Below, piece after piece: positions 1 to 38,866 of a stretch of DNA of 38,866 nucleotides. Source of the stretch: a virus; IMG/VR virus record IMGVR_UViG_3300011158_000001, positions 1 through 38,866 of that record; one strand, 5' to 3'. Every line of letters starts with the position of its first letter. Position 1 is the stretch's first letter. Made by a program: the position numbers and the translations under genes. The notes beneath the pieces are model-generated. The model made no database searches and was not told the origin of the DNA. It worked only from the letters and a program-made list of their open reading frames with translations.

Positions 1-99
1 AGGACGTTTTATCTTTAGCCTCTCCACCCTGGCCTACCAGGAGCTGCAACGGCAAACCGAGTACCGGCACGCGAGCAGCTCGCGTGTGGGGGCGCCGCC
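1..99. repeat. 99-nt terminal overlap, identical to 38768..38866 (circular assembly overlap or terminal redundancy)
   Basis: Base-by-base comparison of the first 99 nt with the last 99 nt shows identity. One ORF (gpU) reads through the junction in frame. Confidence 0.95.
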
Positions 100-6358: not shown

Positions 6359-7027
6359 ATGATCGTTCTCATCGGCAATACGAAAGGCGGTACCGGCAAG
6401 AGCACCACTTCCGTTCAGCTCGCAGTCGCACGAGCTAACCAAGGCAAGAATGTTTGGCTGGTCGATGGAGATCCGCAGAACAGTTCCGGCCAGGCTATTA
6501 CGCTTCGTTTGATGGATGGAGTAAAACCAGCCGTCGCTGCATCCCATTACCCGAAAGGCGATGACTTCTACGTCCAGGTTGAGCATCAATCCAAACTTTA
6601 TGATGACGTAATCCTGGACTGTGGTGGTTTCGATAGCGAGTCGTTGCGTTCCGCCTTGGCCTTGGCCGATGTACTAGTGGTCCCGTTCCAACCTCGCGCC
6701 TTCGACACTTGGGCACTTAGCAAAATGGCTTCTCTTATAGATGAAGCACAACGCGCACGTTCGCGAGCCAAGATTCAACCCCTCCGTGTGCATGCCATGC
6801 TTTCTATGGCTGATCCTGGTGTGAATGCCTCTGACAACCTTGAAGCTGAAAGGGTACTCGAGCATTACCCGCAACTTCCTTTCTTGGATGCATCGCTCGG
6901 CGATCGAAAGGCATTTGCTGTTGCATCAAGCCGCGGGCTTAGCGTCGATGAACTTGAGCGTAAGGATCAGAAAGCCAGCTTCGAGCTCAAGCGCCTGGTG
7001 CGTCATATCTTTGGAGATGTTGAATGA
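6359..7027 (+). CDS. parA: ParA partition ATPase (small, type Ib)
   Basis: Deviant Walker A motif GNTKGGTGKST at the N-terminus. 222 aa with no N-terminal HTH. Confidence 0.9.
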   Translation: MIVLIGNTKGGTGKSTTSVQLAVARANQGKNVWLVDGDPQNSSGQAITLRLMDGVKPAVAASHYPKGDDFYVQVEHQSKLYDDVILDCGGFDSESLRSALALADVLVVPFQPRAFDTWALSKMASLIDEAQRARSRAKIQPLRVHAMLSMADPGVNASDNLEAERVLEHYPQLPFLDASLGDRKAFAVASSRGLSVDELERKDQKASFELKRLVRHIFGDVE

Positions 7028-7928: not shown

Positions 7929-8660
7929 ATGACGGACCTGATGATCGACGAGGCCGACCACTGGGTAGTAAAGGGCAACGCTCTGTTAGAGGCGGCATAC
8001 AAGATGACGCTCCAGGAGAAGCGCTTGCTTTTGCTGGCCATCTCCAAAATCGACTCTCGTAAGCCAATCCCTGAGCCGATTCGTATCTATGCGCATGAGT
8101 TTGCCCAGGCATACAACCTGCCGGGAAAATGGGCCTATGAGGCTATCAAGGAAGCAACAGAAAGCCTGTACCACTGCACGATCAAGATCCCAGAAGTAGC
8201 AAACAGCCCCGAGGACGAATACCGCTGGATTTGGCGTAAGAGCACGACCAAATATGATGGCTTCGTTGAGCTGTACTTCACGCCAGTGGTTGCACCCTAC
8301 CTATCTGAACTGACAGGCGATTTCACGCGCTACAAGCTGATGCGTGTGGCTAACCTAACCTCAGTCCATAGCGTGCGGCTATTCGAGATGTTCATGCGCT
8401 ATGAGGTCGAGGGTTTCGGCTACTGGATCGTCAAGCTGGACGATTTCCGCGAGCGCCTTGGCCTGGGCAAAGCGTACGAGCGTATGAGCAATCTACGGAC
8501 GCGCGTGCTGGATCCGGTAAAGAACGAGCTACCCGAGAAGGCCAATATGGTGATGGACTATGAAATCATCAAAAAGGGCAGGGTACCCGACCGGTTGAAG
8601 TTTACGTTTTACTCAACGACAGACGCTGAAGCGCTGCCCATATCATCCGATCGAGGATAG
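7929..8660 (+). CDS. Iteron-binding replication initiator (Rep_3 family)
   Basis: VVKGNALLEAAYKMTLQEKRLLLLAISKID is the Rep_3 N-terminal signature. 243 aa, with iterons directly upstream. Confidence 0.9.
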   Translation: MTDLMIDEADHWVVKGNALLEAAYKMTLQEKRLLLLAISKIDSRKPIPEPIRIYAHEFAQAYNLPGKWAYEAIKEATESLYHCTIKIPEVANSPEDEYRWIWRKSTTKYDGFVELYFTPVVAPYLSELTGDFTRYKLMRVANLTSVHSVRLFEMFMRYEVEGFGYWIVKLDDFRERLGLGKAYERMSNLRTRVLDPVKNELPEKANMVMDYEIIKKGRVPDRLKFTFYSTTDAEALPISSDRG

Positions 8661-9039: not shown

Positions 9040-9356
9040 TAATTCTCTCGCCAGCCCCTAAGGCGAGGCCTCCAGTCGCTTTGTTTGGCGACAAGGTAAG
9101 CGCAGTTTACCGCGTCAAAACCCTTACCAGCGCTCGGCGATAGCGCCTGAAGGATGTCCCGGAGAATATGCTGGAGGCGTTGACCGCGATTCAGTGCCGT
9201 GATATCTAATTACCATCGGGTTTGGGGCACAATTTAACTTTCCACTGACTATATGCGGTGGCCACTGCAAGGGTAGCTTTGCCTGATCGCGCTATACGGT
9301 TACGTTACTGATGGCGACGGTAAAAGAGAAAATAGCCCCAAAGCCCGGTACTACGA
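9040..9356 (+). ncRNA. Candidate retron msr-msd template region (boundaries not resolved)
   Basis: ORF-free DNA directly upstream of a retron-type RT. Inverted repeats gcctccag/ctggaggc (9068..9075 / 9171..9178) enclose three small hairpins. Imperfect 16-18 nt repeat taccatcgggtttggggc / gccccaaagcccggta (9211..9228 / 9335..9350). No long msd-like hairpin or clear branching G could be identified by eye. Confidence 0.3.
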
Positions 9357-11153
9357 ATGGATATCGACGAGGATTTCAAGGATTTATTTGGCCCGGGTTT
9401 CAAGAGCCTCGATGGGTTCTGCCAGCTATTAGAAGTTGATAGAGACAAACTACTCAACTTCCTTTACAACAGGAAAGGCAGCCATTACGTTAGCTTTCTC
9501 ATCTTAAAGAAAAACAAAACCCATCGCTGCATTAAAGCACCCATACGGGTAATGAAGAAAATTCAGCATGCGCTTTTGCCGCATCTCGAAAAATTCTATT
9601 CCCCCAAGCCTTCCAGTCATGGCTTCGTCAAGGGAAGGAACGTCAAGACAAATGCTCAAATCCATTCCGGAAAGAGATATGTGTTCAACATTGATCTGAA
9701 GGATTTTTTCGAAAGCATCCATTTTGGGCGAGTCAGAAATTTATTCATGGCCCCCCCATTTAGTGCACCCTACAATGTTGCGACTGTTATGGCGCATATT
9801 TGTTGCAGCGACGGAAAATTAGCTCAAGGCTCCCCAACCTCACCGCTAATATCGAACATGATTTGCCGGAAGCTAGACTCACAAATTCAGGCCCTAGCAA
9901 AATCAAGTAAATGTCATTTTACACGGTACGCTGACGACATTACGTTTTCCTTTACCTGTACTGAAAAATACTTACCGAAAGATATTGTCGAAGTCTCCGA
10001 GGACGGCAGAGCGATACCTGGGTGCGTACTGGAGGAGATCATCAAATCCAATGGTTTCATCATAAACTCCGAAAAAACGCGTCTTCAGCACCGGACGCAG
10101 CGCCAGATGGTAACGGGCCTGGTCGTCAATGAGATGCCAAACGTAACCAGAGAATTCATCCGTTTAACGAGTTCGATGATCAACGCTCTTAAACGCTACG
10201 GGCCTGAGCTGGCAGAAGCCAAGTATTTGGAAATTCTGAAGAGCGAGAATCAGCCGCTTCAGCCTCGACAAACTCTGCGGGCGAAGGGGAATTCTGGCGA
10301 TTTTTTTATCAAGGTGGTCAAAGGGCGACTGAATTATATTCAAATGATTCGCGGTCGAGGTGACAAGATCTATCGTCGCTTGGCATATGAATTCACAGTA
10401 GCTATAGGCAAAGAGAATCTTGAGTTCAAAAAATCACCTGAAGAGATCTTAGGAAACTCAATTTTTGTCGTTAACAACATCATTGAGGAATCTCAGGGGA
10501 CGGCCTTCCTTCTGGATGGGGTCGGCATCGTTACCAATGAACACGTTGTGACGGGGGTATCTAAAACGATCGCTCGTCACTCCATTTCATTCAAGCGTGC
10601 CGGCGATACGAGAGAGTACTCAGCAGAGCTTATCCTTTCGGACAAAAAAGCAGACTTGGCTATTTTTCATCCCAATGAAGAGTTCCGAAACATACCCGCC
10701 CTGCGCAAGTCCGACAAAACGATTATTCGCCCCACGGATCCAGTTCTATCGATCGGTTTCCCTAAGCATCGAGACGGTACCGCGCACTACATCGCAAAAG
10801 GCCATACTACTCAGCGACGCCGCCAGGTCGACCTAGATCTGTGGTTGGTTGATTTCACGCTGATGGAGGGAAATAGTGGTGGTCCTATGTTCAACGACTC
10901 CATGGAAGTGATCGGTATCACAGCTAGAGGAGCAAGAAATAATATCGATGCAGCGCTTTACGGCTTTATACCACTAGAAAGCTTGAACAGTTTTATAAAC
11001 AGAGCGGACTTTCTACTTCTGAAAAGGTTGTACGACTATCTAGGCAACGGATCACTAAGCCTCCTCCCTAGAGTTCTTGGCAAGGGGCTTTTTAGCAGTA
11101 CCTACCAAATAAAGCTCCATAAGGAACGCCTTCAGCAAGCTAAGGCAGTTTAA
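9357..11153 (+). CDS. Retron-type reverse transcriptase fused to a C-terminal trypsin-like (S1) serine protease
   Basis: RT motifs NAQIH (NAxxH, 9651..9665), YADD (9927..9938) and VTG (10110..10118). Protease triad contexts TNEHVV, DLAIF and GNSGGPMF (Ser codon 10875..10877). 598 aa, with lower GC than the backbone. Confidence 0.9.
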   Translation: MDIDEDFKDLFGPGFKSLDGFCQLLEVDRDKLLNFLYNRKGSHYVSFLILKKNKTHRCIKAPIRVMKKIQHALLPHLEKFYSPKPSSHGFVKGRNVKTNAQIHSGKRYVFNIDLKDFFESIHFGRVRNLFMAPPFSAPYNVATVMAHICCSDGKLAQGSPTSPLISNMICRKLDSQIQALAKSSKCHFTRYADDITFSFTCTEKYLPKDIVEVSEDGRAIPGCVLEEIIKSNGFIINSEKTRLQHRTQRQMVTGLVVNEMPNVTREFIRLTSSMINALKRYGPELAEAKYLEILKSENQPLQPRQTLRAKGNSGDFFIKVVKGRLNYIQMIRGRGDKIYRRLAYEFTVAIGKENLEFKKSPEEILGNSIFVVNNIIEESQGTAFLLDGVGIVTNEHVVTGVSKTIARHSISFKRAGDTREYSAELILSDKKADLAIFHPNEEFRNIPALRKSDKTIIRPTDPVLSIGFPKHRDGTAHYIAKGHTTQRRRQVDLDLWLVDFTLMEGNSGGPMFNDSMEVIGITARGARNNIDAALYGFIPLESLNSFINRADFLLLKRLYDYLGNGSLSLLPRVLGKGLFSSTYQIKLHKERLQQAKAV

Positions 11154-11501
11154 TGAATGATCAAAGTACAATGGCTAGTTTGCCTCGCCCCAAGCGACTT
11201 AACATCCATTCTTCTGTTTGGCACACAATCACACATAAGTCACAATACTCCTGCGTCGAGAGCTGCCCGGGTACGCCATGAGAATCATGGGTAAGATGAG
11301 TCGAGTCGGGACGCATCAGCGCGACCTTGTACCTGACAGCCATCGACATGCATGGTGTGAGCTACTCGCTTCGTTGATGCCTGCAAACTATAGTCGTCTT
11401 ATAAACGCGGCAGAAGAGTCCGCCTTTGGTCGATAGCTGTCATTTAATGTGGGTAGTTACTGGGTCGCTACAGGACGCCTACGCACAACACCCAATATAT
11501 A

Positions 11502-11523
11502 AAAGCCTCGATCAGAGGGCTTT
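11502..11523. terminator. Candidate bidirectional terminator hairpin
   Basis: aagcctc-gatca-gagggctt (one bulge), with T-rich runs on both strands. Lies just 3' of the recombinase gene. Confidence 0.4.
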
Positions 11524-11529
11524 CTGCTT

Positions 11530-12180
11530 CTACAAAATAGAAAGCTGGTCATCCGACTGCATTAGCGCAGCCGTCTCTCGTTTGAACCGGGACACTGTAC
11601 TGGTCGAGCAGCCGAGTAGATCCGCCGTCTTACGAACAGAGAAGCCTTTAGCCAAACATTCCTGAATCCTGCGCCGTTGCTCTTGGTCGGTTTGCCGACC
11701 CCGGTACAAGCCTGTGCTTTTGGCTTTTTCGATGCCTTGTATTTGCCGCTCGCGCCGTATGTCGTAGTCCTTGCGCGCAAATGCGGCCATGAATTCCAGA
11801 AACATCTGGCTGATCGCTTTAAGCATCCACTCTTGAATGCTGTCTTCGCCCGTAGGTTTGAGTACAGCATGTGTGATGGGCAGATCGAGCGCGACGACCT
11901 GAAGACCTGCCGCTGCGATCTGGTTACGCAACTGCTCCCAGGCCGATCTGGGGAGGCGGGTCAGACGGTCGACTGATTCGACTAGGAGCACATCGCCAGG
12001 TGAAGCGTCAGCAAGTAGCCGCAGCAGCTCGGAGCGGTCCACTGTCGTGCCCGAGGCATTCTCAATATAGAAGGCAGCGATACGGACACTTTGATCGGCT
12101 GCGAAGGATTGAAGCGTCTTTCGAGCCCGGTTGGCGTCCTGGTCGTCAGTGCTGGCTCGAAGGTAGGCGCGAATGAACAT
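11530..12180 (-). CDS. Small serine recombinase (resolvase/invertase family)
   Basis: N-terminal MFIRAYLRASTDDQ (catalytic Ser context), ..VESVDRLTR.., and a C-terminal HTH (SVRKTADLLGCSTSTVSR). 216 aa. Confidence 0.9.
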   Translation of the reverse strand: MFIRAYLRASTDDQDANRARKTLQSFAADQSVRIAAFYIENASGTTVDRSELLRLLADASPGDVLLVESVDRLTRLPRSAWEQLRNQIAAAGLQVVALDLPITHAVLKPTGEDSIQEWMLKAISQMFLEFMAAFARKDYDIRRERQIQGIEKAKSTGLYRGRQTDQEQRRRIQECLAKGFSVRKTADLLGCSTSTVSRFKRETAALMQSDDQLSIL

Positions 12181-12190
12181 TTATGGCCTC

Positions 12191-12322
12191 AGGTGTAGTC
12201 GTTAGGTGTAGCGAATTATAGGTGTAGTCGTATAAGTCCTTTTACCTATTTATCGCTACACCTGAAAGGCCTGTTTTGGGTGTAGTCGCTGGGGTATACC
12301 TTACTGACTACAAAAATAGTCG
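12191..12322. repeat. Array of GGTGTAGTCG-type 10-mers (candidate res/operator sites)
   Basis: aggtgtagtcg 12191..12201, aggtgtagcg 12204..12213, aggtgtagtcg 12220..12230, inverted cgctacacct 12254..12263, gggtgtagtcg 12278..12288, gactac..tagtcg 12306..12322. All lie between the recombinase start and the next gene. Confidence 0.6.
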
Positions 12323-12341
12323 TAATTTTAAGGAGATTTTG

Positions 12342-12917
12342 ATGAGACAATTTGATCAGCAATCGGAGATGGATGAGGAGCTACAAGCTTTTTTGTGCGC
12401 CCAACGTGCGGAATTCGAAGAGCGTACTTACTGGGTAAATCACTCATTAGGTGCTGAGAGCCATTGGTTATTTGAGCAGGCATACGAGGCGTTAAAACAC
12501 GGATTGTATTTACCAGCGTGTACAGGATTCCTTACGGGAATCGAGGCGTCACTTCGCAATACAATGGCTCAGGTAAACAATCTAGCCCGTGTTGAGAGTG
12601 TGGACGATATATCACTACTAAGTAATGCTCTGCTACGTCAAGCGCGGGCCAACGGTATATCGATTGAAGCATTAATTTTTCCAAAAGAAGAGAACTTCGA
12701 AGACAAGCTAAAAACTCGGCAACAACCCGTCGAGATTGTTAGGGTTCGCCACAATTTTTGCCATGGGAATATCCTTGAGCATGTAAGAACAGCATACGAG
12801 ACACCATTTTTTACACCTGAATGCTGTCGCGAACTTGCTGAAACGCTTCACATGATCTCGCGCAACTGGGTAGCGAGCCTAGGTATATATAGAAAACAGA
12901 TTCTTGGTTTGAAGTAA
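12342..12917 (+). CDS. Hypothetical protein with a possible HEPN-type Rx4H motif
   Basis: ATG 12342 is preceded by aggag (12331..12335). 191 aa, predicted helical. VRVRHNFCHGN has R (12747..12749) and H (12762..12764) spaced as Rx4H in the C-terminal third. Confidence 0.45.
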   Translation: MRQFDQQSEMDEELQAFLCAQRAEFEERTYWVNHSLGAESHWLFEQAYEALKHGLYLPACTGFLTGIEASLRNTMAQVNNLARVESVDDISLLSNALLRQARANGISIEALIFPKEENFEDKLKTRQQPVEIVRVRHNFCHGNILEHVRTAYETPFFTPECCRELAETLHMISRNWVASLGIYRKQILGLK

Positions 12918-13055
12918 CAAACGAGCTGTTTAGAATTTACTCTAGACGAATATGGTATTTTGTAAGGTCTGTTAGTTCTAGTTATCTAAATCTGGATCGC
13001 TCGTCTTTCGAGAGTCAGTCCCGGCAGTGGCAGTTCTGCTTTTGATCATGAATGG

Positions 13056-13391
13056 ATGTTTATGACTATGTACAAAAATGGAATGCGCCCAATTCATCCA
13101 GGAGAGATTCTTCGAGAGGAGTTTCTGAATCCGTCAGATACGTTAACCAAATGTTTTGCTCAGACAGCCTCTATCCCAGAAACCATACTGAACGACATCC
13201 TGTGTGAGCGTCAGGAGATAACATCTGACCTGGCTCTGTTACTCAGTAACGCTTTGGGTACTACAGCTAAGTTCTGGATGAACCTTCAGAGCGCATATGA
13301 CTTACGCTTGGCCGAACTGGCAAAGATGACGACTCATGGCATTCAGACGCAATTCAAGAGGGGCTGGACGAGGCCGAAGCAGGCCAGATAA
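13056..13391 (+). CDS. HigA-like XRE antitoxin/regulator with no adjacent HigB
   Basis: NGMRPIHPGEILREEFLNP and ..LSNALGTTAKFWMNLQSAYDL are the HigA/VapI signature. The upstream gap is too short for a toxin gene, and the C-terminal 20 aa look atypical. Confidence 0.7.
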   Translation: MFMTMYKNGMRPIHPGEILREEFLNPSDTLTKCFAQTASIPETILNDILCERQEITSDLALLLSNALGTTAKFWMNLQSAYDLRLAELAKMTTHGIQTQFKRGWTRPKQAR

Positions 13392-13462
13392 TCGACCTTG
13401 AGGATATCAATTCCAAATGGATAGGCCGTGCAAAAACGCATTTATCCAAACAGAGCTCATAG

Positions 13463-13487
13463 AAAAGCCTCCATTTGGAGGCTTTTT
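13463..13487 (+). terminator. Rho-independent terminator
   Basis: aaagcctcc-attt-ggaggcttt followed by a T-run. Confidence 0.75.
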
Positions 13488-13509
13488 CGTAAAGCAAGCA
13501 GGTAGCCTA

Positions 13510-13647
13510 TCAAGCCTGTAGCGCAGAAATAACGTGGGTTGGGTCTTTCTCAACCTCGAAGATGTGGGAGGGCTCACGCTCCCCCGCAACGATTTCGTTC
13601 ATCTGCTCCATGCTCTTGATCAGATCATCAAAGAGTTCTTTGTCCAT
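13510..13647 (-). pseudogene. 45-codon fragment resembling the N-terminus of an XRE-type antitoxin
   Basis: MDKELFDDLIKSMEQMNEIVAGEREPSHIFEV.. then a stop. The expected HTH domain and a partner toxin are both absent. Below the ORF-track size cut-off. Confidence 0.35.
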
Positions 13648-13697
13648 ATTTTTTGCTTACCAGCCAGCTATCTTAGTATTGTCTACCTTTCTAAGGA

Positions 13698-13737
13698 CAT
13701 GAGAATATTTTAATATATTATATAAATTATTCTCATG
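13698..13737. repeat. Inverted repeat at the edge of the AT-rich TIR island
   Basis: catgagaata (13698..13707) and tattctcatg (13728..13737) around a 20-nt A/T spacer, 30 nt beyond the TIR gene stop. No U-run follows. Confidence 0.6.
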
Positions 13738-13766
13738 GTGCTGTTTATAATTTTTATATATGTTGA

Positions 13767-15206
13767 TTATGGTTGTGTAGCTAATTGTTGGTAACCAATT
13801 AGATTGGCAGGGTTGATAGTTTCAAATTTCCATTTTGGTAAGGATTGTCTGTCTTTTTTATATTCATCCATTAATTTGTCTAGATCTGATGGTTTACTTA
13901 TACCAAGAATTACTTTTGATTTTTCAAAATATGACTTGGATGAAGATCTTGCAAAAACTTCAAAAGCGCTATTGAATCTATCTAAATATAGTAGAGTTTC
14001 TGGAAACCATCGTGAATAAATATCCGTTTGTTTGATTTCGGAACGCATGAATAGAATGAAGTCAGCTTGCATTAAATGCTTAAAATCAATTCCTGACTGT
14101 GCATTCCTTTCTTTGAGTAAGGCTGCACGTAAAGATAGTTTGTTAAGCTTAAGTCTTCTGTTTCTATGATCAAGAACCCCTAGGTGTTCACTGAACGTCT
14201 CGTAGCTAGTCATAAGCTCTTTGTTATAATTTGACTTGCTTGGTGAGTAATACTGCTGTGTTAGAAATTTGTTTAATAGGTCAAACTTTTCATTTTTTGT
14301 GAAGATAGCTACAAGGTATAAGAATAATTCATGAATTATAAATTTAAAATTATCGAAGTCACATTCTTCCCAATAGTTCATGCTTTGGGGTCTATACATA
14401 TAAGGTATTAGTCGCTCGAAAAATCTGTGTAGTTTGAGAATGTTTTCCTCCGTGGGGCTGTATTGTGCTATTGCGATAAAAAGGGAAATAGCTTCGTTTC
14501 TATAAGGAATGAAATCTTCTATATTACTTATTACTAGATCATCAAATTCTTTTTCTGAGTCTTTTATTACTCTAAAGTTTTCGATGTTTTCACTGAACAG
14601 TGTTAAGTATTCATCTAGTGATCCAGATGCAGAAGGCTTATTTTCTTTAATAGCTGATATTGTTCGTTTAAAACTAGCTGTTGTACCAAGAGATACGCTT
14701 TCTGCTTCATCCAAAAAGGATGGTCTTTTGCCAATGTCAGGCCTTTTATGTAAAGGCTTGTTATAAATCCATCTTAATAGTTTTTCAAAGTTTTCTGAAT
14801 ATTTGTCTGATTCGCTTAAATCAATGTATATCCTAGAGTTAAAATAAGTTGGAAGAAAAGCTTTTCCTTGGTTGTCTTTTTCAGTAATTATCGCTACAAA
14901 TTTATCCTGATCTTGTCCTTCGTATATTCTTCTTGAGATTATTTGAGTCTCTGTTCCTACACCGCCAAGACGTCCATCTGCTTTGGCTGCGTATATTTCA
15001 TCACAAATTAAAGCTACTTTTTTAATGTCTGGATCAGTAACCATTTTTTCCATAAAAGCTATAGCGTCATGGCCTTCTTTTAAATCCCATTTGTCAAGAA
15101 TAACGTGCACGCCAGACTCAGATAAGTCGTTGGCTAGATCTATTACCCACTGTTCATGTGATGGGTTTGACCAGCTATATGATATAAATAGTTTTGGATT
15201 TTCCAT
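13767..15206 (-). CDS. TIR-superfamily (SEFIR-like) domain protein with a C-terminal domain of about 330 aa of unknown function
   Basis: Start set at ATG 15206 (MENPKLFISYSWSNPSHEQWVIDLANDL..GVHVILDKWDLKEGHD...GGVGTETQII...KFVAIITEKD). About 30% GC by eye, against about 60% for the backbone. Confidence 0.8.
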   Translation of the reverse strand: MENPKLFISYSWSNPSHEQWVIDLANDLSESGVHVILDKWDLKEGHDAIAFMEKMVTDPDIKKVALICDEIYAAKADGRLGGVGTETQIISRRIYEGQDQDKFVAIITEKDNQGKAFLPTYFNSRIYIDLSESDKYSENFEKLLRWIYNKPLHKRPDIGKRPSFLDEAESVSLGTTASFKRTISAIKENKPSASGSLDEYLTLFSENIENFRVIKDSEKEFDDLVISNIEDFIPYRNEAISLFIAIAQYSPTEENILKLHRFFERLIPYMYRPQSMNYWEECDFDNFKFIIHELFLYLVAIFTKNEKFDLLNKFLTQQYYSPSKSNYNKELMTSYETFSEHLGVLDHRNRRLKLNKLSLRAALLKERNAQSGIDFKHLMQADFILFMRSEIKQTDIYSRWFPETLLYLDRFNSAFEVFARSSSKSYFEKSKVILGISKPSDLDKLMDEYKKDRQSLPKWKFETINPANLIGYQQLATQP

Positions 15207-15255
15207 AGATTTCACTTTTATAAAGGTATGTATAATAAATAAAATAATCCGCATT

Positions 15256-15283
15256 AAAAAGGCCCCTTTGCTGGGGCCTTTTT
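15256..15283 (-). terminator. Rho-independent terminator after hicB
   Basis: aaaaaggcccc-tttgct-ggggccttttt. A/T runs on both sides make it potentially bidirectional. Confidence 0.8.
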
Positions 15284-15706
15284 TTAAGCTGCTTCTACAA
15301 CTACACGGATTCTTTTTCCCAATAGTTCTAAAGCATGTTCGACAGACTCTATTTTTGAATTATGTAGAAAGTCTACTAAACGATCTACCTGCGGCAAGTT
15401 AACGCCTAGTTTGCGGGCTAAGTCTGCTTTGCCCACACCTTGCTCGACCATTGCATTCCATAATGCAATTTTGGCTACTGTTAAAGCCGGTAGCCGAACA
15501 ATATGCTGTCCTTTTTTAGGTTTAGATGCCGCTGGAATTGCTCTTCGTTGAGATACGTAAATTGATAAAGCCGACTCTAGTCCATCTACTGCTTCGAGTA
15601 AGGCTTCAGCCTCATCATCGCCTGCGCTATGCAGCTCTGGTATATCAGGGCTGCTTACCCAGACGCATCCATCTTCGACATGTACGTCTACTGGATACTC
15701 GTTCAT
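15284..15706 (-). CDS. hicB: HicB antitoxin
   Basis: MNEYPVDVHVEDGCVWVSSPDIPELHSAGDDEAEALLEAVDGLESAL plus a C-terminal HTH (KADLARKLGVNLPQVDRL) parallels E. coli HicB. Confidence 0.9.
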   Translation of the reverse strand: MNEYPVDVHVEDGCVWVSSPDIPELHSAGDDEAEALLEAVDGLESALSIYVSQRRAIPAASKPKKGQHIVRLPALTVAKIALWNAMVEQGVGKADLARKLGVNLPQVDRLVDFLHNSKIESVEHALELLGKRIRVVVEAA

Positions 15707-15821
15707 ATGCTACCTGTCTTATTACAAGTTAATCCGTCTCTAAGGACAGTCTTGAGGTCTGTTTACCGCCTCTCCTGGGCGTTTGGTTGTACGGAGTGTG
15801 CGAAGCTCTGAACAACAGGGC

Positions 15822-16004
15822 TCAATCGTTGAGCCCCAGCTGTTTCATGATCGACTTTCTCAGACCTTCGCCCATTTCCTTTGAGCCATGATCTGGGAAT
15901 GTGGTTGCCTTGTCCCCCAAAGTCACCTTGAAGTGACTTCCTTTGGCGGGCTCAAAGTGAGCACCCTGAGCCTTTAACCACCGTCGAAATTCGCTATATT
16001 TCAT
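15822..16004 (-). CDS. hicA: HicA mRNA interferase toxin
   Basis: MKYSEFRRWLKAQGAHFEPAKGSHFKVTL...FPDHGSKEMGEGLRKSIMKQLGL is the canonical HicA pattern. Confidence 0.9.
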   Translation of the reverse strand: MKYSEFRRWLKAQGAHFEPAKGSHFKVTLGDKATTFPDHGSKEMGEGLRKSIMKQLGLND

Positions 16005-16037
16005 GGATCACACTCCGCTGTTTCGACGATGACTATT

Positions 16038-16077
16038 ACACAACATTTTTGTTGTGTTAGCAACAAAAATGTTGTGT
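16038..16077. promoter_or_regulatory. Nested palindromes upstream of hicA (candidate HicB operator)
   Basis: acacaacatttttgttgtgt (16038..16057) is followed by its near reverse complement caacaaaaatgttgtgt (16061..16077). Confidence 0.5.
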
Positions 16078-16111
16078 TGGAGTGATTTTATTCTATGAGG
16101 TTTCAAATTGT

Positions 16112-16906
16112 TCAGAACAAGCCCGGCGGCTCGTCCTCTGGGTTCCAGCTAAAGATCAGCACCTCAGACGCACTCGCGCTCTTACCTCCACCGCCGACCG
16201 TATATTTCAGGTCGATCTTCTCGATGTGGAAAGCGCTGAACACCTCGCGGATCGCTGGGTGATCGTTCAGGCTGATGATGGCCTTGCCCTTGAGCTGGCC
16301 TAGCACACGGGCCATTTCCTCAAACTGCTCAAAGCCAAACGGCACGCCGTAGCCTTCCGTTTCCCAGTAGGGCGGATCCATATAAAAGAACGTATGTTCC
16401 CGGTCGTACTTCTTGATGCAGTCCTGCCAGGACAGGTGCTCGATGTAGGTCTGGGACAGGCGCAGGTGCGCTGCAGAAAGGTTCTCCTCGATGCGCAGGA
16501 GGTTCAGGCCGGGCGGTGTGGTGGTGGCAGTGCCATACGTCTGGCCTTCAACCTTGGCACCAAACGCCGACTGCTGCAGGTAGTAGAAGCGGGCCGCGCG
16601 CTGGATGTCGGTCAGGGTTTGCGGATCGGTCAGCTGCAGCCACTTGAACACCTGCCGGCTGGATAGCGCCCATTTGAACTGCCGGACAAATTCCTCCAGG
16701 TGATGCTGCACGACCCGGTACAGATTCACCAAGTCGCCATTTACGTCATTGAGCACCTCGACCTCCGCCGGCACTTGCCTCAGAAAGAAGAGGGCTGCGC
16801 CGCCGGCAAAGGGCTCGACATAGCAGGAGTGCTGCGGAAACAGCGGGAAGATACGGTCAGCCAGGCGGCGCTTGCCACCCATCCAGGGAATGATTGGGGA
16901 AGTCAT
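16112..16906 (-). CDS. dam: DNA adenine methyltransferase (Dam, D12 class)
   Basis: PWMGGKRRL, EPFAGGAALFF and a DPPY motif (FFYMDPPYWE). No cognate nuclease is nearby. Confidence 0.9.
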   Translation of the reverse strand: MTSPIIPWMGGKRRLADRIFPLFPQHSCYVEPFAGGAALFFLRQVPAEVEVLNDVNGDLVNLYRVVQHHLEEFVRQFKWALSSRQVFKWLQLTDPQTLTDIQRAARFYYLQQSAFGAKVEGQTYGTATTTPPGLNLLRIEENLSAAHLRLSQTYIEHLSWQDCIKKYDREHTFFYMDPPYWETEGYGVPFGFEQFEEMARVLGQLKGKAIISLNDHPAIREVFSAFHIEKIDLKYTVGGGGKSASASEVLIFSWNPEDEPPGLF

Positions 16907-16936: not shown

Positions 16937-17968
16937 TTATTGCTGTAAAGCGAGTTCATAAGGTTTAAAGCGAATTACCTCATCACCGATCCACTCGTTG
17001 AGCTGGGCTAGGCGCGCCTGGACGGGTTCGAGTTCATTAGCCGCGTAGATCAGTGCCGCGTCCCGGATCGAGCCAAAGCCCCCGGCGTTTTGCGGCACTA
17101 TGCCCATCAGCTGCGGCGGAATGCGCAGGCCGGCGAGCATGTCGTCGCGGCTGATATTCTTGATCGAGCCAAAGTCATCCTTGGCCGCCACCTCGCTGAT
17201 GGGGATGAGCTGGATGCCGTCCTTTTTGCCGTTGGGCGAGTACATGAAGAGGTTGCGGAAGTTGCCCGGCCCCTTGGCCGACTTGAGCGCCTGCCGCATG
17301 GCGTCCACGTCGCCCTCGTTCTGGGCCGGGTCGGTCATGTAGAGAATGAAACCGGCGTGGCTGCCGTTGTTGTAATACTTGCGGCGGAAGAGGGTGGCTG
17401 ACTCATTCAAGAGCGCCGACTGCAGCGCAGCGATCCACTCGGGCAGGCCGTAGATCTCCTGGTTAATGTCTACCTCGCGTAGGTGGTAAATCGAGCCTGG
17501 CTCAAAGGCATGTTCCTCCCTCCAGGCCTGAACCATGTAGAACTGATCGTCCTTGCCACGGCGCATGTACTTAGCCAGAACAGGGGCGAGCGTGAGCGTG
17601 CTGCCCAGCATCGAGCGCCGGCGTTCCAGGTAGGCATTGCCAAAGGTCAGCCAATCCAGGACCAGCTGCTCGAAGGCTGCGCGGCTTAGGAGCTTATGCG
17701 GGATAAAGGTGCGGGCCAGCATGTTGCGCTTGAAGTTCAGGCCCGACTGCAGGTAAACGCTGGCCCGAACGGATTTAGCCAAGCCATCGAATGAGAGCGG
17801 CGGATCGTAGTAACGGCCGTTAAACCAGCACTCCAGGTAATCGAGCACCTCGCGGCTGTCGAGTACCGGGATGGCATCGCCAAAGGTAAAGGCTTCGATA
17901 CCGGCTGAGGAAGAGCCAGTCGCTAGCACCGTTTCTGGTGGCAGCGCTTGAGTGGTCGTGCTCATCAA
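16937..17968 (-). CDS. Q: Portal protein gpQ
   Basis: 343 aa, P2 gpQ-like in size, position and sequence. Overlaps the terminase gene end. Confidence 0.95.
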   Translation of the reverse strand: MMSTTTQALPPETVLATGSSSAGIEAFTFGDAIPVLDSREVLDYLECWFNGRYYDPPLSFDGLAKSVRASVYLQSGLNFKRNMLARTFIPHKLLSRAAFEQLVLDWLTFGNAYLERRRSMLGSTLTLAPVLAKYMRRGKDDQFYMVQAWREEHAFEPGSIYHLREVDINQEIYGLPEWIAALQSALLNESATLFRRKYYNNGSHAGFILYMTDPAQNEGDVDAMRQALKSAKGPGNFRNLFMYSPNGKKDGIQLIPISEVAAKDDFGSIKNISRDDMLAGLRIPPQLMGIVPQNAGGFGSIRDAALIYAANELEPVQARLAQLNEWIGDEVIRFKPYELALQQ

Positions 17969-31945: not shown

Positions 31946-32187
31946 AAGTTTTAGGTGTTTTGCCTGCTAAACGGCTGATAGGTTTCGGTAGTGCATAGCA
32001 TTCATCCAGTCATCTGGCTGAACACTTCCGCTGGGCAGTTACCAGAGAAAATTGCTAGATAGGTCACATTTCACTTTTGTATCCTGCTCGCCTCGGCATT
32101 AACGGAATAAAGCCTGTGCGAGCCCTTCCTCACAAAATCAAAACCTTTCAAAAAGAGTTCAGCCTTTTGCCAGGCTATGCTTTTTCT

Positions 32188-33087
32188 ATGCGCATATTCT
32201 GGCTGGTTGCACTGCTTGCCGCGCTGATTATTGGTTCATTGATCTTTAATGCGATCAACACCATTGTTTTCAAATCCCATACCTATTCTCATCTGCCCTA
32301 TATCTCGTTGGGCTTTGAGTTTTTTGTTCTGATACCTAGTTTTTTGCAGGTCATATGCGAGATCGACCAGCAACGCTGCCGGCGGTTATATCCGCAGGTG
32401 AGGCCAACTGGCTTTCGTGCTGCGGTGACAATGATCAACCGAGCAAAATACGAGCGAATCGAAGCTCTGTTCGGCCCTCAGGAAAGCTTGGAGAAACTGG
32501 CTAAAGGCCTGATTGAAGAATGGAAGTGGCGACGCGAAATCCAGCTTAATGCTGGAGAAACAGACGTCCAAAAGGCCCGAAAATTCTTCCGCTTGCCGTC
32601 AGGTAGCAACCTTGCCACTTACCTCGCCGGGGTCTTGGCTATCGTGGCCGGTATTGTGGTGGCACTGATAGATAAGGATAGCTTCTATCAAGAGCTTCCC
32701 AATTTATGGGGTAGCTTTGAATTTTGGTACATCGCTCTCTTTAAATTAATCGTCATGCCTATAGCGATTTGTATCATCCCGCTCGCAGTTATCTGGAGCA
32801 GCATAAAAGCGATAGGCCGGATTCTCGCTGAGAGCATGGATGATGATTTTCTCAGCCAACCTAAATTCTACTCGTTCATCAAAGAGCTCCTGGAACTGGC
32901 TGATCGCAAAGAACGAAGGCTACTGCTTAAAACAACAGGCCGAGCCTATTGGTCGATTCGCCTTCTGACTGCTCCAATTCATAAAGTCCCTAGAATTTAC
33001 AGAAATGTCCATCGCTCGAAGCGGCTGGCCAAGCTGAGAAAGGCAGGTTTGAAAAATCAGTTTATCAAAACCCAGGTGAGGCATTAA
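32188..33087 (+). CDS. 4-TM membrane protein (accessory cassette at the Z/fun position)
   Basis: Start reset from TTG 32077 to ATG 32188 (MRIFWLVALL..). There are four hydrophobic segments, a soluble loop of about 90 aa and a basic C-terminus. AT-rich. Confidence 0.6.
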   Translation: MRIFWLVALLAALIIGSLIFNAINTIVFKSHTYSHLPYISLGFEFFVLIPSFLQVICEIDQQRCRRLYPQVRPTGFRAAVTMINRAKYERIEALFGPQESLEKLAKGLIEEWKWRREIQLNAGETDVQKARKFFRLPSGSNLATYLAGVLAIVAGIVVALIDKDSFYQELPNLWGSFEFWYIALFKLIVMPIAICIIPLAVIWSSIKAIGRILAESMDDDFLSQPKFYSFIKELLELADRKERRLLLKTTGRAYWSIRLLTAPIHKVPRIYRNVHRSKRLAKLRKAGLKNQFIKTQVRH

Positions 33088-33090
33088 TGC

Positions 33091-33618
33091 ATGGATCAGC
33101 CAAGTATAGTGATACAAAGTTTGCCAGCCATAACAGGTCTTATTGGTGCATGTGTTGGCTTCGCAGGCTCTTTTCTTAATACGTTGTACAACCAAAAACA
33201 GACCCATAAACAGAGTCATAATCAACGCAAACGAGAAAGAATCGAGTCGCTATACAGGCTTATAGAAGTTACAAGATATGAAATACAAAGGGATCAAAAA
33301 AATACAATGCTTGCCGCGAATGGACACCATAGCGAGATAGAGCACTCGGCTACAATAGAGGGGAAGCTTCCAGCCTTCATAGAGATTGAGATGTTGATCG
33401 ATCTCTACCTCCCGATCCTTAAAGAAGGATATCAAAACTTCGACAAGGCTCGATCTGAATTTAAAGCCATTTGTTCTCGGCTAGCAGATGAGCCAATGCA
33501 AAGCAAAAGCGCTGAAGAGCAACTAGCAGACGTTAATGAGTTGCGGTGGTACTTTGAAAATGTACAAGGCGAGCTTTATAAACTTCAGGCGATGCTGCCT
33601 GAGTTGATCGAGTCTTAA
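33091..33618 (+). CDS. Single-TM helical protein, operonic with the 4-TM protein
   Basis: Starts 4 nt after the previous stop. N-terminal TM segment LPAITGLIGACVGFAGSFL, followed by charged helical sequence. Confidence 0.6.
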   Translation: MDQPSIVIQSLPAITGLIGACVGFAGSFLNTLYNQKQTHKQSHNQRKRERIESLYRLIEVTRYEIQRDQKNTMLAANGHHSEIEHSATIEGKLPAFIEIEMLIDLYLPILKEGYQNFDKARSEFKAICSRLADEPMQSKSAEEQLADVNELRWYFENVQGELYKLQAMLPELIES

Positions 33619-38753: not shown

Positions 38754-38866
38754 ATGATGATGGCCCTAGGACGTTTTATCTTTAGCCTCTCCACCCTGGC
38801 CTACCAGGAGCTGCAACGGCAAACCGAGTACCGGCACGCGAGCAGCTCGCGTGTGGGGGCGCCGCC
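38754..38866 (+). CDS. U: Tail protein gpU, 5' portion (continues at position 1)
   Basis: MMMALGRFIFSLSTLAYQELQRQTEYRHASSSRVG.. parallels the P2 gpU N-terminus (MMLALGMFVF...). Confidence 0.9.
   Translation, partial: MMMALGRFIFSLSTLAYQELQRQTEYRHASSSRVGAP

Follow-up and report, generated by a model that had tools for sequence, protein, structure and literature searches.

A full-length bSEFIR-family gene as probable single-gene defence cargo in the portal-proximal hotspot of a Pseudomonas P2-like phage

Introduction

What is the role of a gene of conspicuously low G+C content, coding for a TIR-like domain joined to a long C-terminal part of obscure kinship, in a phage genome that offers it none of the partner genes of the best known TIR defence systems? 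The question is raised by a viral sequence of 38,866 nt (IMG/VR record IMGVR_UViG_3300011158_000001; the whole stretch analysed is called the window here), in which an earlier note, made from the letters of the DNA and their open reading frames, had singled out one minus-strand gene as a stand-alone TIR/SEFIR protein and perhaps a single-gene abortive-infection module.

The background for such a reading exists. The preprint of Millman et al. describes an enrichment of SEFIR-domain proteins in defence islands and reports that one SEFIR gene of Bacillus sp. NIO-1130 on its own protects B. subtilis from phi29, and that the D40A substitution at the predicted SEFIR-SEFIR interface abolishes that defence; the family rule given there is that the SEFIR match lies at the N-terminus and scores above any TIR match. 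Later papers that cite Millman 2022 (Cell Host & Microbe) state that NAD+ is depleted by the N-terminal domain of SEFIR, with ADPR and nicotinamide as the products, and that this is countered by NARP1, a phage pathway of NAD+ reconstitution. As to location, P2 carries old and tin between gpA and gpQ, and most defence systems of P2-like phages are found there (Rousset et al. 2022; a 2026 NAR survey of P2 and P4 defence hotspots). From the analysis presented here, we think it very likely that the gene is a bSEFIR member, that it forms part of the gpA-gpQ hotspot cargo of a Pseudomonas P2-like temperate phage (closest record P. luteola), and that it works by the mechanism proposed in the Discussion.

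Results

The limits of the gene were set by its homologues (Table 1). DNA similarity to 13 homologous loci in other genera begins no more than 9 nt from position 15206 and ends at the SEFIR stop codon or just ahead of it, and in the protein alignment the homologues are all ~478 aa long with an N-terminus of the form M-E-x-P-K. A longer mechanical ORF opens at an ATG at 15254; this start was rejected, as that ATG lies within the T tail of the terminator hairpin upstream and is at odds with the homologues in length, in N-terminal sequence and in the limits of DNA homology. On these grounds the start is taken as 15206.

Table 1. Positions of the SEFIR gene, its parts and its surroundings in the window
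Feature	Position	Strand	Basis or remark
SEFIR gene (putative defence gene)	13767..15206	minus	479 aa + stop; PADLOC bSEFIR, phrog_11745, DNA-homology limits
SEFIR (TIR-like) domain, residues 4-156, presumed NADase effector	14739..15197	minus	Pfam, PDB sequence match, Foldseek
Codon of Asp38, I-L-D-x-W motif	15093..15095	minus	invariant in 74 diverse homologues; aligned to TIR NADases
Codon of Glu53, alternative candidate catalytic Glu	15048..15050	minus	conservation at least equal to that of Glu86
Codon of Glu86, GGVGTET motif, candidate catalytic Glu	14949..14951	minus	at least 90% conserved among diverse homologues; present in 5y8e
All-alpha C-terminal domain, residues 161-479, presumed phage sensor/regulator	13770..14726	minus	bSEFIR match, AF2 model, phmmer
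G+C-rich hairpin with A-run and T-run at its sides, shape of a bidirectional intrinsic terminator	15256..15283	minus	dG -20.4 kcal/mol, z -2.7
10-bp inverted repeat, CATGAGAATA / TATTCTCATG, 20-nt spacer	13698..13737	.	dG -12.4, z -3.8
Cargo hotspot (context)	9357..16906	.	between replication module and portal gpQ
Rep3, replication module	7929..8660		
Portal gpQ	16937..17968		

The statement of the earlier note that this gene has the lowest G+C content in the element is borne out: GC is 33.5% over the gene and GC3 26.5%, where the window has 54.8% and the phage structural genes have ~60%, and the lowest 500-nt GC windows of the element are those of the SEFIR gene (0.33-0.35), the next lowest elsewhere standing at 0.43. 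The note had taken this as the mark of an island. In 52 of 55 homologous loci, however, the SEFIR gene is poorer in G+C than the DNA on either side of it, and SEFIR homologues of 34-38% GC occur at seven further loci, in five host species, so that a GC content below that of the host is a trait of the SEFIR family rather than a peculiarity of this island.

Two structures bracket the gene, as had been proposed, and both are real as judged by folding energy and z score. The hairpin stands directly after the hicB stop codon, between it and the SEFIR ATG, which follows at 49 nt; the inverted repeat is A+T-rich and lies 30 nt beyond the SEFIR stop codon, with no U-run after it on the gene's strand. 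A promoter of the gene's own, also claimed earlier, went unconfirmed, the consensus scan having found no sigma-70 site on the minus strand in the 49 nt from hairpin to ATG. An Rfam gathering scan of the whole window gave zero matches.

The window is a P2-like phage genome, with terminase, portal, scaffold and capsid ~76% identical to those of phiCTX-like Pseudomonas phages. By megablast against phage and plasmid records only structural genes (terminase, portal) were matched and the SEFIR region was uncovered; the same search with positions 13000-16000 against complete E. coli genomes returned zero matches. The hotspot between replication and portal genes holds a type XI retron RT-protease (PADLOC E 9e-180), a small serine resolvase, a HigA-like antitoxin, the SEFIR gene, hicB, hicA and a D12-class (Dam-like) adenine methyltransferase, the neighbours of the SEFIR gene being HicB/HicA and the HigA-like antitoxin. 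A distant, full-length SEFIR homologue is located immediately beside the portal gene in the Klebsiella phage ST15-OXA48phi14.1 (Peduoviridae).

These surroundings bear on whether the gene might serve the element itself, as an addiction or maintenance toxin of a plasmid-like prophage, or be silent cargo with no current function. The element does have a plasmid-like look (Rep3 and ParA, with no integrase), toxin-antitoxin genes (HicAB, HigA-like) stand around the SEFIR gene, its very low GC could draw xenogeneic silencing, and the consensus scan gave it no promoter. Nevertheless, the ORF is intact and has every residue that is invariant in the family, no cognate antitoxin is conserved alongside it in other genomes, and the family to which it belongs is enriched in defence islands and has one member validated as defence (Millman et al. 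preprint). A role confined to the element, or none at all, is consequently very unlikely in our estimate, and the reading as defence cargo is kept.

That family membership is carried by matches along the entire protein. The PADLOC bSEFIR model PDLC03957 is matched over residues 1-478 (E 1.3e-122) and phrog_11745 over the full length (E 1.6e-145); the product of the gene is 100% identical to a protein that NCBI lists as 'SEFIR domain-containing protein [Pseudomonas luteola]', and NCBIfam has no family for it. By BLASTP a B. cereus plasmid homologue aligns end to end at 35% identity (E 7e-86) and the Klebsiella P2-like phage homologue over its full length at 31%. The Pfam SEFIR match, at the N-terminus, scores 62.5 bits and the TIR_2 match 54.1 bits, which is the order that the selection rule for bSEFIR requires. 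Even the C-terminal 319 aa, when searched alone, match the PADLOC bSEFIR model (E 4.4e-31, model positions 194-385), and the part that had seemed uncharacterised is thus the family's own C-terminal domain. On sequence grounds, then, the gene belongs, intact and over its full length, to the published single-gene bSEFIR defence family, a kind already known. The validated protein is that of Bacillus sp. NIO-1130, and the comparison made here is with other Bacillus members, at ~35% identity. The ~478-aa clade of this gene consists mostly of proteobacterial members.

The proposals of the earlier note fare accordingly. Its single-gene abortive-infection module finds support in the full-length bSEFIR membership of a gene whose family is reported as an NAD+-depleting defence. 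It was right, too, that no ThsA-like, STING-like or NTPase partner is adjacent; its view that the gene fits no known TIR architecture has to be given up, since the gene fits the published SEFIR system and standard defence HMMs recognise it. Likewise, the absence of any match for the C-terminal ~330 aa holds for Pfam, NCBIfam, PDB and BFVD, and fails for PADLOC.

For the N-terminal part the assignment as a SEFIR/TIR domain is well founded at the levels of both sequence and fold. Pfam SEFIR matches residues 5-136 (E 7.2e-17) and TIR_2 follows with E 2.7e-14, and the bacterial SEFIR domain of PDB 5y8e is found by sequence over residues 4-156 (E 4.6e-35). The fold comparison that had been recommended for this part gives the same answer: in a Foldseek search with the AlphaFold (AF2) model the top match is again 5y8e (E 4.7e-7, TM 0.73 normalised to target). 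Weaker Foldseek matches are the SARM1 TIR domain 6o1b (E 0.048) and, weakly, the IL-17RA/RB/ACT1 assembly 9ot1.

Candidate active-site residues can be named with differing firmness. Asp38 aligns with the 'W-Y-D' Asp on beta-B of the TIR NADases AbTIR and PdTIR, and from its position it is probably the counterpart of D40 in the validated protein. For the catalytic glutamate, whose conservation the note had wished to see checked, Glu86 is a candidate by virtue of its place after beta-C; its conservation (Table 1) goes with a family-profile alignment to AbTIR and PdTIR that spans only the first ~45-50 residues and with an AF2 model in which pLDDT is below 50 at residues 80-87, and Glu53 is an alternative. 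All family-invariant residues are present in the intact ORF.

It could be argued that a SEFIR domain need not be an enzyme at all, and that the protein is a non-enzymatic adaptor acting through SEFIR-SEFIR interaction, as in eukaryotic IL-17R/Act1 signalling. Besides the weak Foldseek match to 9ot1, the profile search finds Act1 (E 0.017), with an alignment to the Act1 SEFIR chain of 9ot1 that reaches about position 71, and general protein-protein interaction roles were proposed by the authors of the bacterial SEFIR structure, as relayed in the Millman et al. preprint. NAD+ depletion by SEFIR has since been reported, however, and it is countered by a phage pathway that rebuilds NAD+; moreover, the acidic and glycine-bearing loop GGVGTET is conserved more strongly than an interface alone would need. 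We therefore judge an adaptor role to be even less probable than a role confined to the element, and retain the presumption of an NADase effector.

Whether the gene acts alone was approached through the neighbourhoods of its homologues. A survey restricted to one genome per species recovered at least 70 loci, 56 of them with a full-length gene, and these at least 70 loci span Proteobacteria, Verrucomicrobia, Planctomycetes, Chloroflexi, Bacteroidetes, CPR, Actinomycetota and archaea. No ORF family occurs within 4 kb of the gene in more than 4 of the 56 species loci, and hence no conserved partner was found; the DNA homology to the 13 loci mentioned above is restricted to the coding sequence, give or take a few nt at its ends. 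Individual contexts are varied. The Pectobacterium homologue comes directly after a tyrosine integrase, in an island with PAAR-pyocin and CdiI genes; that of Vibrio fluvialis adjoins an MmeI-type restriction enzyme, helicases and a T5orf172 gene; those of Salmonella and Yersinia are found among conjugative-element genes and beside a giant LPD-domain protein, respectively; and that of V. parahaemolyticus is inside a lambdoid prophage. The Synechocystis homologue is solitary among housekeeping genes. The neighbourhood test suggested in the note, for which housekeeping contexts would count against a defence role, thus comes out largely for defence, with prophage, conjugative, integrase and restriction-modification contexts on the one side and the Synechocystis copy on the other.

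The survey also weighs on a different enzymatic reading, in which SEFIR would be a signal-producing enzyme like Thoeris ThsB, making cyclic ADPR isomers for a separate effector without which it could not act. This draws on the kinship of the two domains, which share the STIR clan, and on the match of the TIR_2 model to the protein, and it runs against the lack of a conserved neighbour in the 56 species loci and in 9 annotated contexts, the absence of ThsA, SLOG and SIR2 genes among the window ORFs scanned, and the description of the family as a single-protein NAD+ depleter in the later literature. Of the three alternatives considered it is the least probable. A self-contained bSEFIR protein remains the preferred reading.

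The C-terminal domain, when modelled alone by AF2, is all-helical with a pLDDT of 83.6 and a pTM of 0.87. A Foldseek search with this model turned up no significant match in the PDB (best E 0.22, TM at most 0.26) or among the BFVD models of viral proteins (best E 0.61); as candidates for its fold, helical repeats of a generic kind (armadillo, 14-3-3, MO25) were rejected, the E-values being weak and TM below 0.27. Pfam had no match to the domain in this protein or in any of 74 diverse members, nor did NCBIfam match it. By contrast with these null results for known folds and families, phmmer with the domain against 1.84 billion representative proteins returned 1458 clusters. Among the 150 of these that were listed, an N-terminal SEFIR is present in 79 of 79 proteins of at least 420 aa, and among these listed matches the domain was seen with no other effector.

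The two halves of the protein differ in their conservation. The C-terminal part is the less conserved in all 48 close comparisons and in all 73 deep ones, with median identities of 61% against 78% for the N-terminal part in the close set and 35% against 56% in the deep set, which is the usual pattern of an effector fused to a sensor. The C-terminal residues conserved at depth are F262, E264, D285, F289, E293, D382, W400, P402 and F418. A conserved polar set (R236, E264, D285, N286, E293, R367, D382, R420 and S423) could belong to a ligand pocket or, more speculatively, to a second catalytic site. Faster evolution than SEFIR and, in the matches listed, occurrence only with SEFIR, taken with the analogy to DSR2-type proteins, make it plausible that the C-terminal domain senses phage or regulates the conserved effector to which it is fused.

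Discussion

The mechanism that we propose has five steps. The lysogen, on the assumption that the gene is expressed, would make the SEFIR protein in an inactive form; a superinfecting phage would yield a cue that the helical C-terminal domain may sense; and sensing would permit self-association of SEFIR domains, presumably into an oligomer, a step that draws support from the validated homologue, in which mutation of the predicted interface abolishes defence. The assembled SEFIR domains would then hydrolyse NAD+ to ADP-ribose and nicotinamide, an activity reported for the family and one that we infer for this orthologue, and the loss of NAD+ would halt phage replication, so that the lysogen population and the resident prophage are protected.

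Since the gene is a bSEFIR instance, it can be annotated automatically by models of the PADLOC and DefenseFinder type, and NCBI already has the identical protein under a SEFIR domain name. What the locus brings to notice is rather, first, its setting: a Pseudomonas P2-like element combines SEFIR with a type XI retron and HicAB in a portal-proximal hotspot, and the presence of SEFIR in the same slot of Pseudomonas and Klebsiella P2-like phages suggests that the hotspot swaps like cargo across genera. The second point is the C-terminal trigger and the way in which the SEFIR NADase is switched on, a question for the whole SEFIR family more than for this locus, and one for which our literature search found no SEFIR trigger, structure or mechanism study. 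A more specific suggestion, namely that the C-terminal fold is new and recognises a phage component or metabolite directly, with the prophage-borne ~478-aa clade (P2-like, lambdoid) responding to a trigger unlike that of the Bacillus protein, is offered tentatively and may well prove wrong.

Among known systems, Thoeris is related through its ThsB TIR protein and differs in organisation. ThsB and the TIR NADases (AbTIR, PdTIR, SARM1 TIR) have the flavodoxin-like fold of the STIR clan in common with SEFIR; the TIR NADases also share the segment from beta-A to beta-B with its conserved Asp, and NAD+ is the substrate reported for the SEFIR family in later papers. Likeness in sequence to the TIR NADases is limited to the first ~45 residues, however, with a SEFIR-specific GGVGTET loop in place of the TIR alpha-C region, and the SEFIR gene lacks the ThsA partner that ThsB has, there being no adjacent ThsA effector (SIR2 or TM with SLOG) in the window. 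DSR1 and DSR2 offer the nearest analogy in layout, since in them an N-terminal NAD+-degrading domain is switched on by a phage-detecting C-terminal domain, a role that is demonstrated for DSR2 and inferred for SEFIR; the effector there is SIR2 where it is SEFIR here, the DSR proteins are much larger, and the C-terminal domains are unrelated.

The P2 old/tin locus is the counterpart as regards position. In both cases the cargo occupies the stretch from the replication genes to portal gpQ, and the Klebsiella Peduoviridae homologue occupies the same slot; the differences are that the cargo here consists of SEFIR, the type XI retron and HicAB, and that the replication module is Rep3/ParA, not gpA. 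At the level of structure the closest relative is BcSEFIR of Bacillus cereus (5Y8E/5Y8F, Yang et al. 2018), to which residues 4-156 align along the full length, although the crystal constructs are without the C-terminal domain and so are silent on regulation. For the system as a whole the match is bSEFIR (Millman et al. 2022, Bacillus sp. NIO-1130; PDLC03957). This gene stands apart from it in having a Pseudomonas host and a P2-like phage carrier, and in its ~35% identity to the Bacillus members compared, a figure that does not refer to the NIO-1130 sequence itself. It agrees with bSEFIR in the N-terminal SEFIR followed by a helical C-terminal domain of its own of ~320 aa, in the length of ~478 aa, in being a partnerless single gene in defence and mobile-element contexts, and in the conservation of the putative interface or active-site Asp and of the GGVGTET loop.

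Cargo surrounding the SEFIR gene

The SEFIR gene is flanked on both sides by toxin-antitoxin pieces (13056..13647 and 15284..16004), with hicA and hicB on one side and a HigA-like antitoxin on the other, the latter having no adjoining toxin gene. A short ORF on the HigA side resembles what would be left of an antitoxin reduced to its N-terminus. Pfam, PADLOC and PHROG searches all returned no match for the 213-aa ORF, which could be a further uncharacterised accessory or defence gene. At the far end of the same hotspot lies a type XI retron reverse transcriptase, upstream of which an 11-nt inverted repeat provides candidate a1 and a2 arms of the msr-msd RNA; Rfam gave zero family matches. Repeat and retron gene together span 9218..11153 on the plus strand. 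The D12-class methyltransferase shows 80% DNA identity with the Pseudomonas phage B3 Dam methylase; it is probably an orphan methylase carried by the phage.

Features of the element, with window coordinates
Feature	Coordinates	Strand	Remarks
ParA ATPase	6359..7027
Rep3-type initiator	7929..8660
11-nt inverted repeat	9218-9228 / 9335-9345
Type XI retron RT fused to trypsin-like protease	9357..11153	+	PADLOC RT-Protease_XI, E 9e-180; Pfam RVT_1 and Trypsin_2
213-aa ORF	12276..12917	+	Shares hotspot with SEFIR gene
HigA-like antitoxin	13056..13391	+	Opposite side of SEFIR gene from hicA/hicB
45-aa ORF	13510..13647	-	Same side of SEFIR gene as HigA-like antitoxin
hicB	15284..15706	-
hicA	15822..16004	-
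D12-class N6-adenine DNA methyltransferase	16112..16906	-	Directly adjoins portal gene
PycTM-like protein, 180 aa	26311..26853	-	PADLOC E 1.8e-10; weak Pfam 8xMP match
Low-GC island	32077..33618	+	43-47% GC; ORFs of 336 and 175 aa

SEFIR homologues in other genomes

Low GC relative to the surroundings is a feature of the family across many phyla: in a sample of 56 full-length SEFIR loci among L016-L085 (one genome per species), plus loci L001-L015, 52 of 55 species had a SEFIR gene poorer in GC than the DNA on either side, with a mean difference of 9 points. The family is present in CPR bacteria and also in archaea (Methanophagaceae, Methanosarcinales). In Marinomonas algicola (L013, 2223..9969), the homologue sits amid four copies of a 94-aa ORF, all on the minus strand and spaced about 1.9-3.7 kb apart, an arrangement suggestive of either a cassette array or a mobile unit present in repeated copies.

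Form of the element

A 99-bp exact terminal direct repeat (1..99 = 38768..38866) shows the window to be a circular assembly, 38,767 bp in length, and the reading frame of a gpU-like tail gene spans the junction of its ends. There is a Rep3-type initiator and a ParA ATPase, and no tyrosine integrase was found among the window ORFs scanned; the element may be a phage-plasmid of P2-like type, as opposed to a prophage that integrates.

Low-GC islands outside the hotspot

Two further islands of low GC lie outside the hotspot. One stands immediately upstream of ORFs taken, by P2 gene order, as tail sheath and tube, a site that in P2 is occupied by the Z/fun accessory locus. Neither of its two ORFs matched PADLOC or Pfam, nor did the 336-aa ORF match PHROG, and the pair is possibly unknown cargo. 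The other island (43-44% GC) lies among the late genes and contains the gene for the 180-aa protein. No cyclase was noticed near this gene, whose product resembles the PycTM effector of Pycsar systems.
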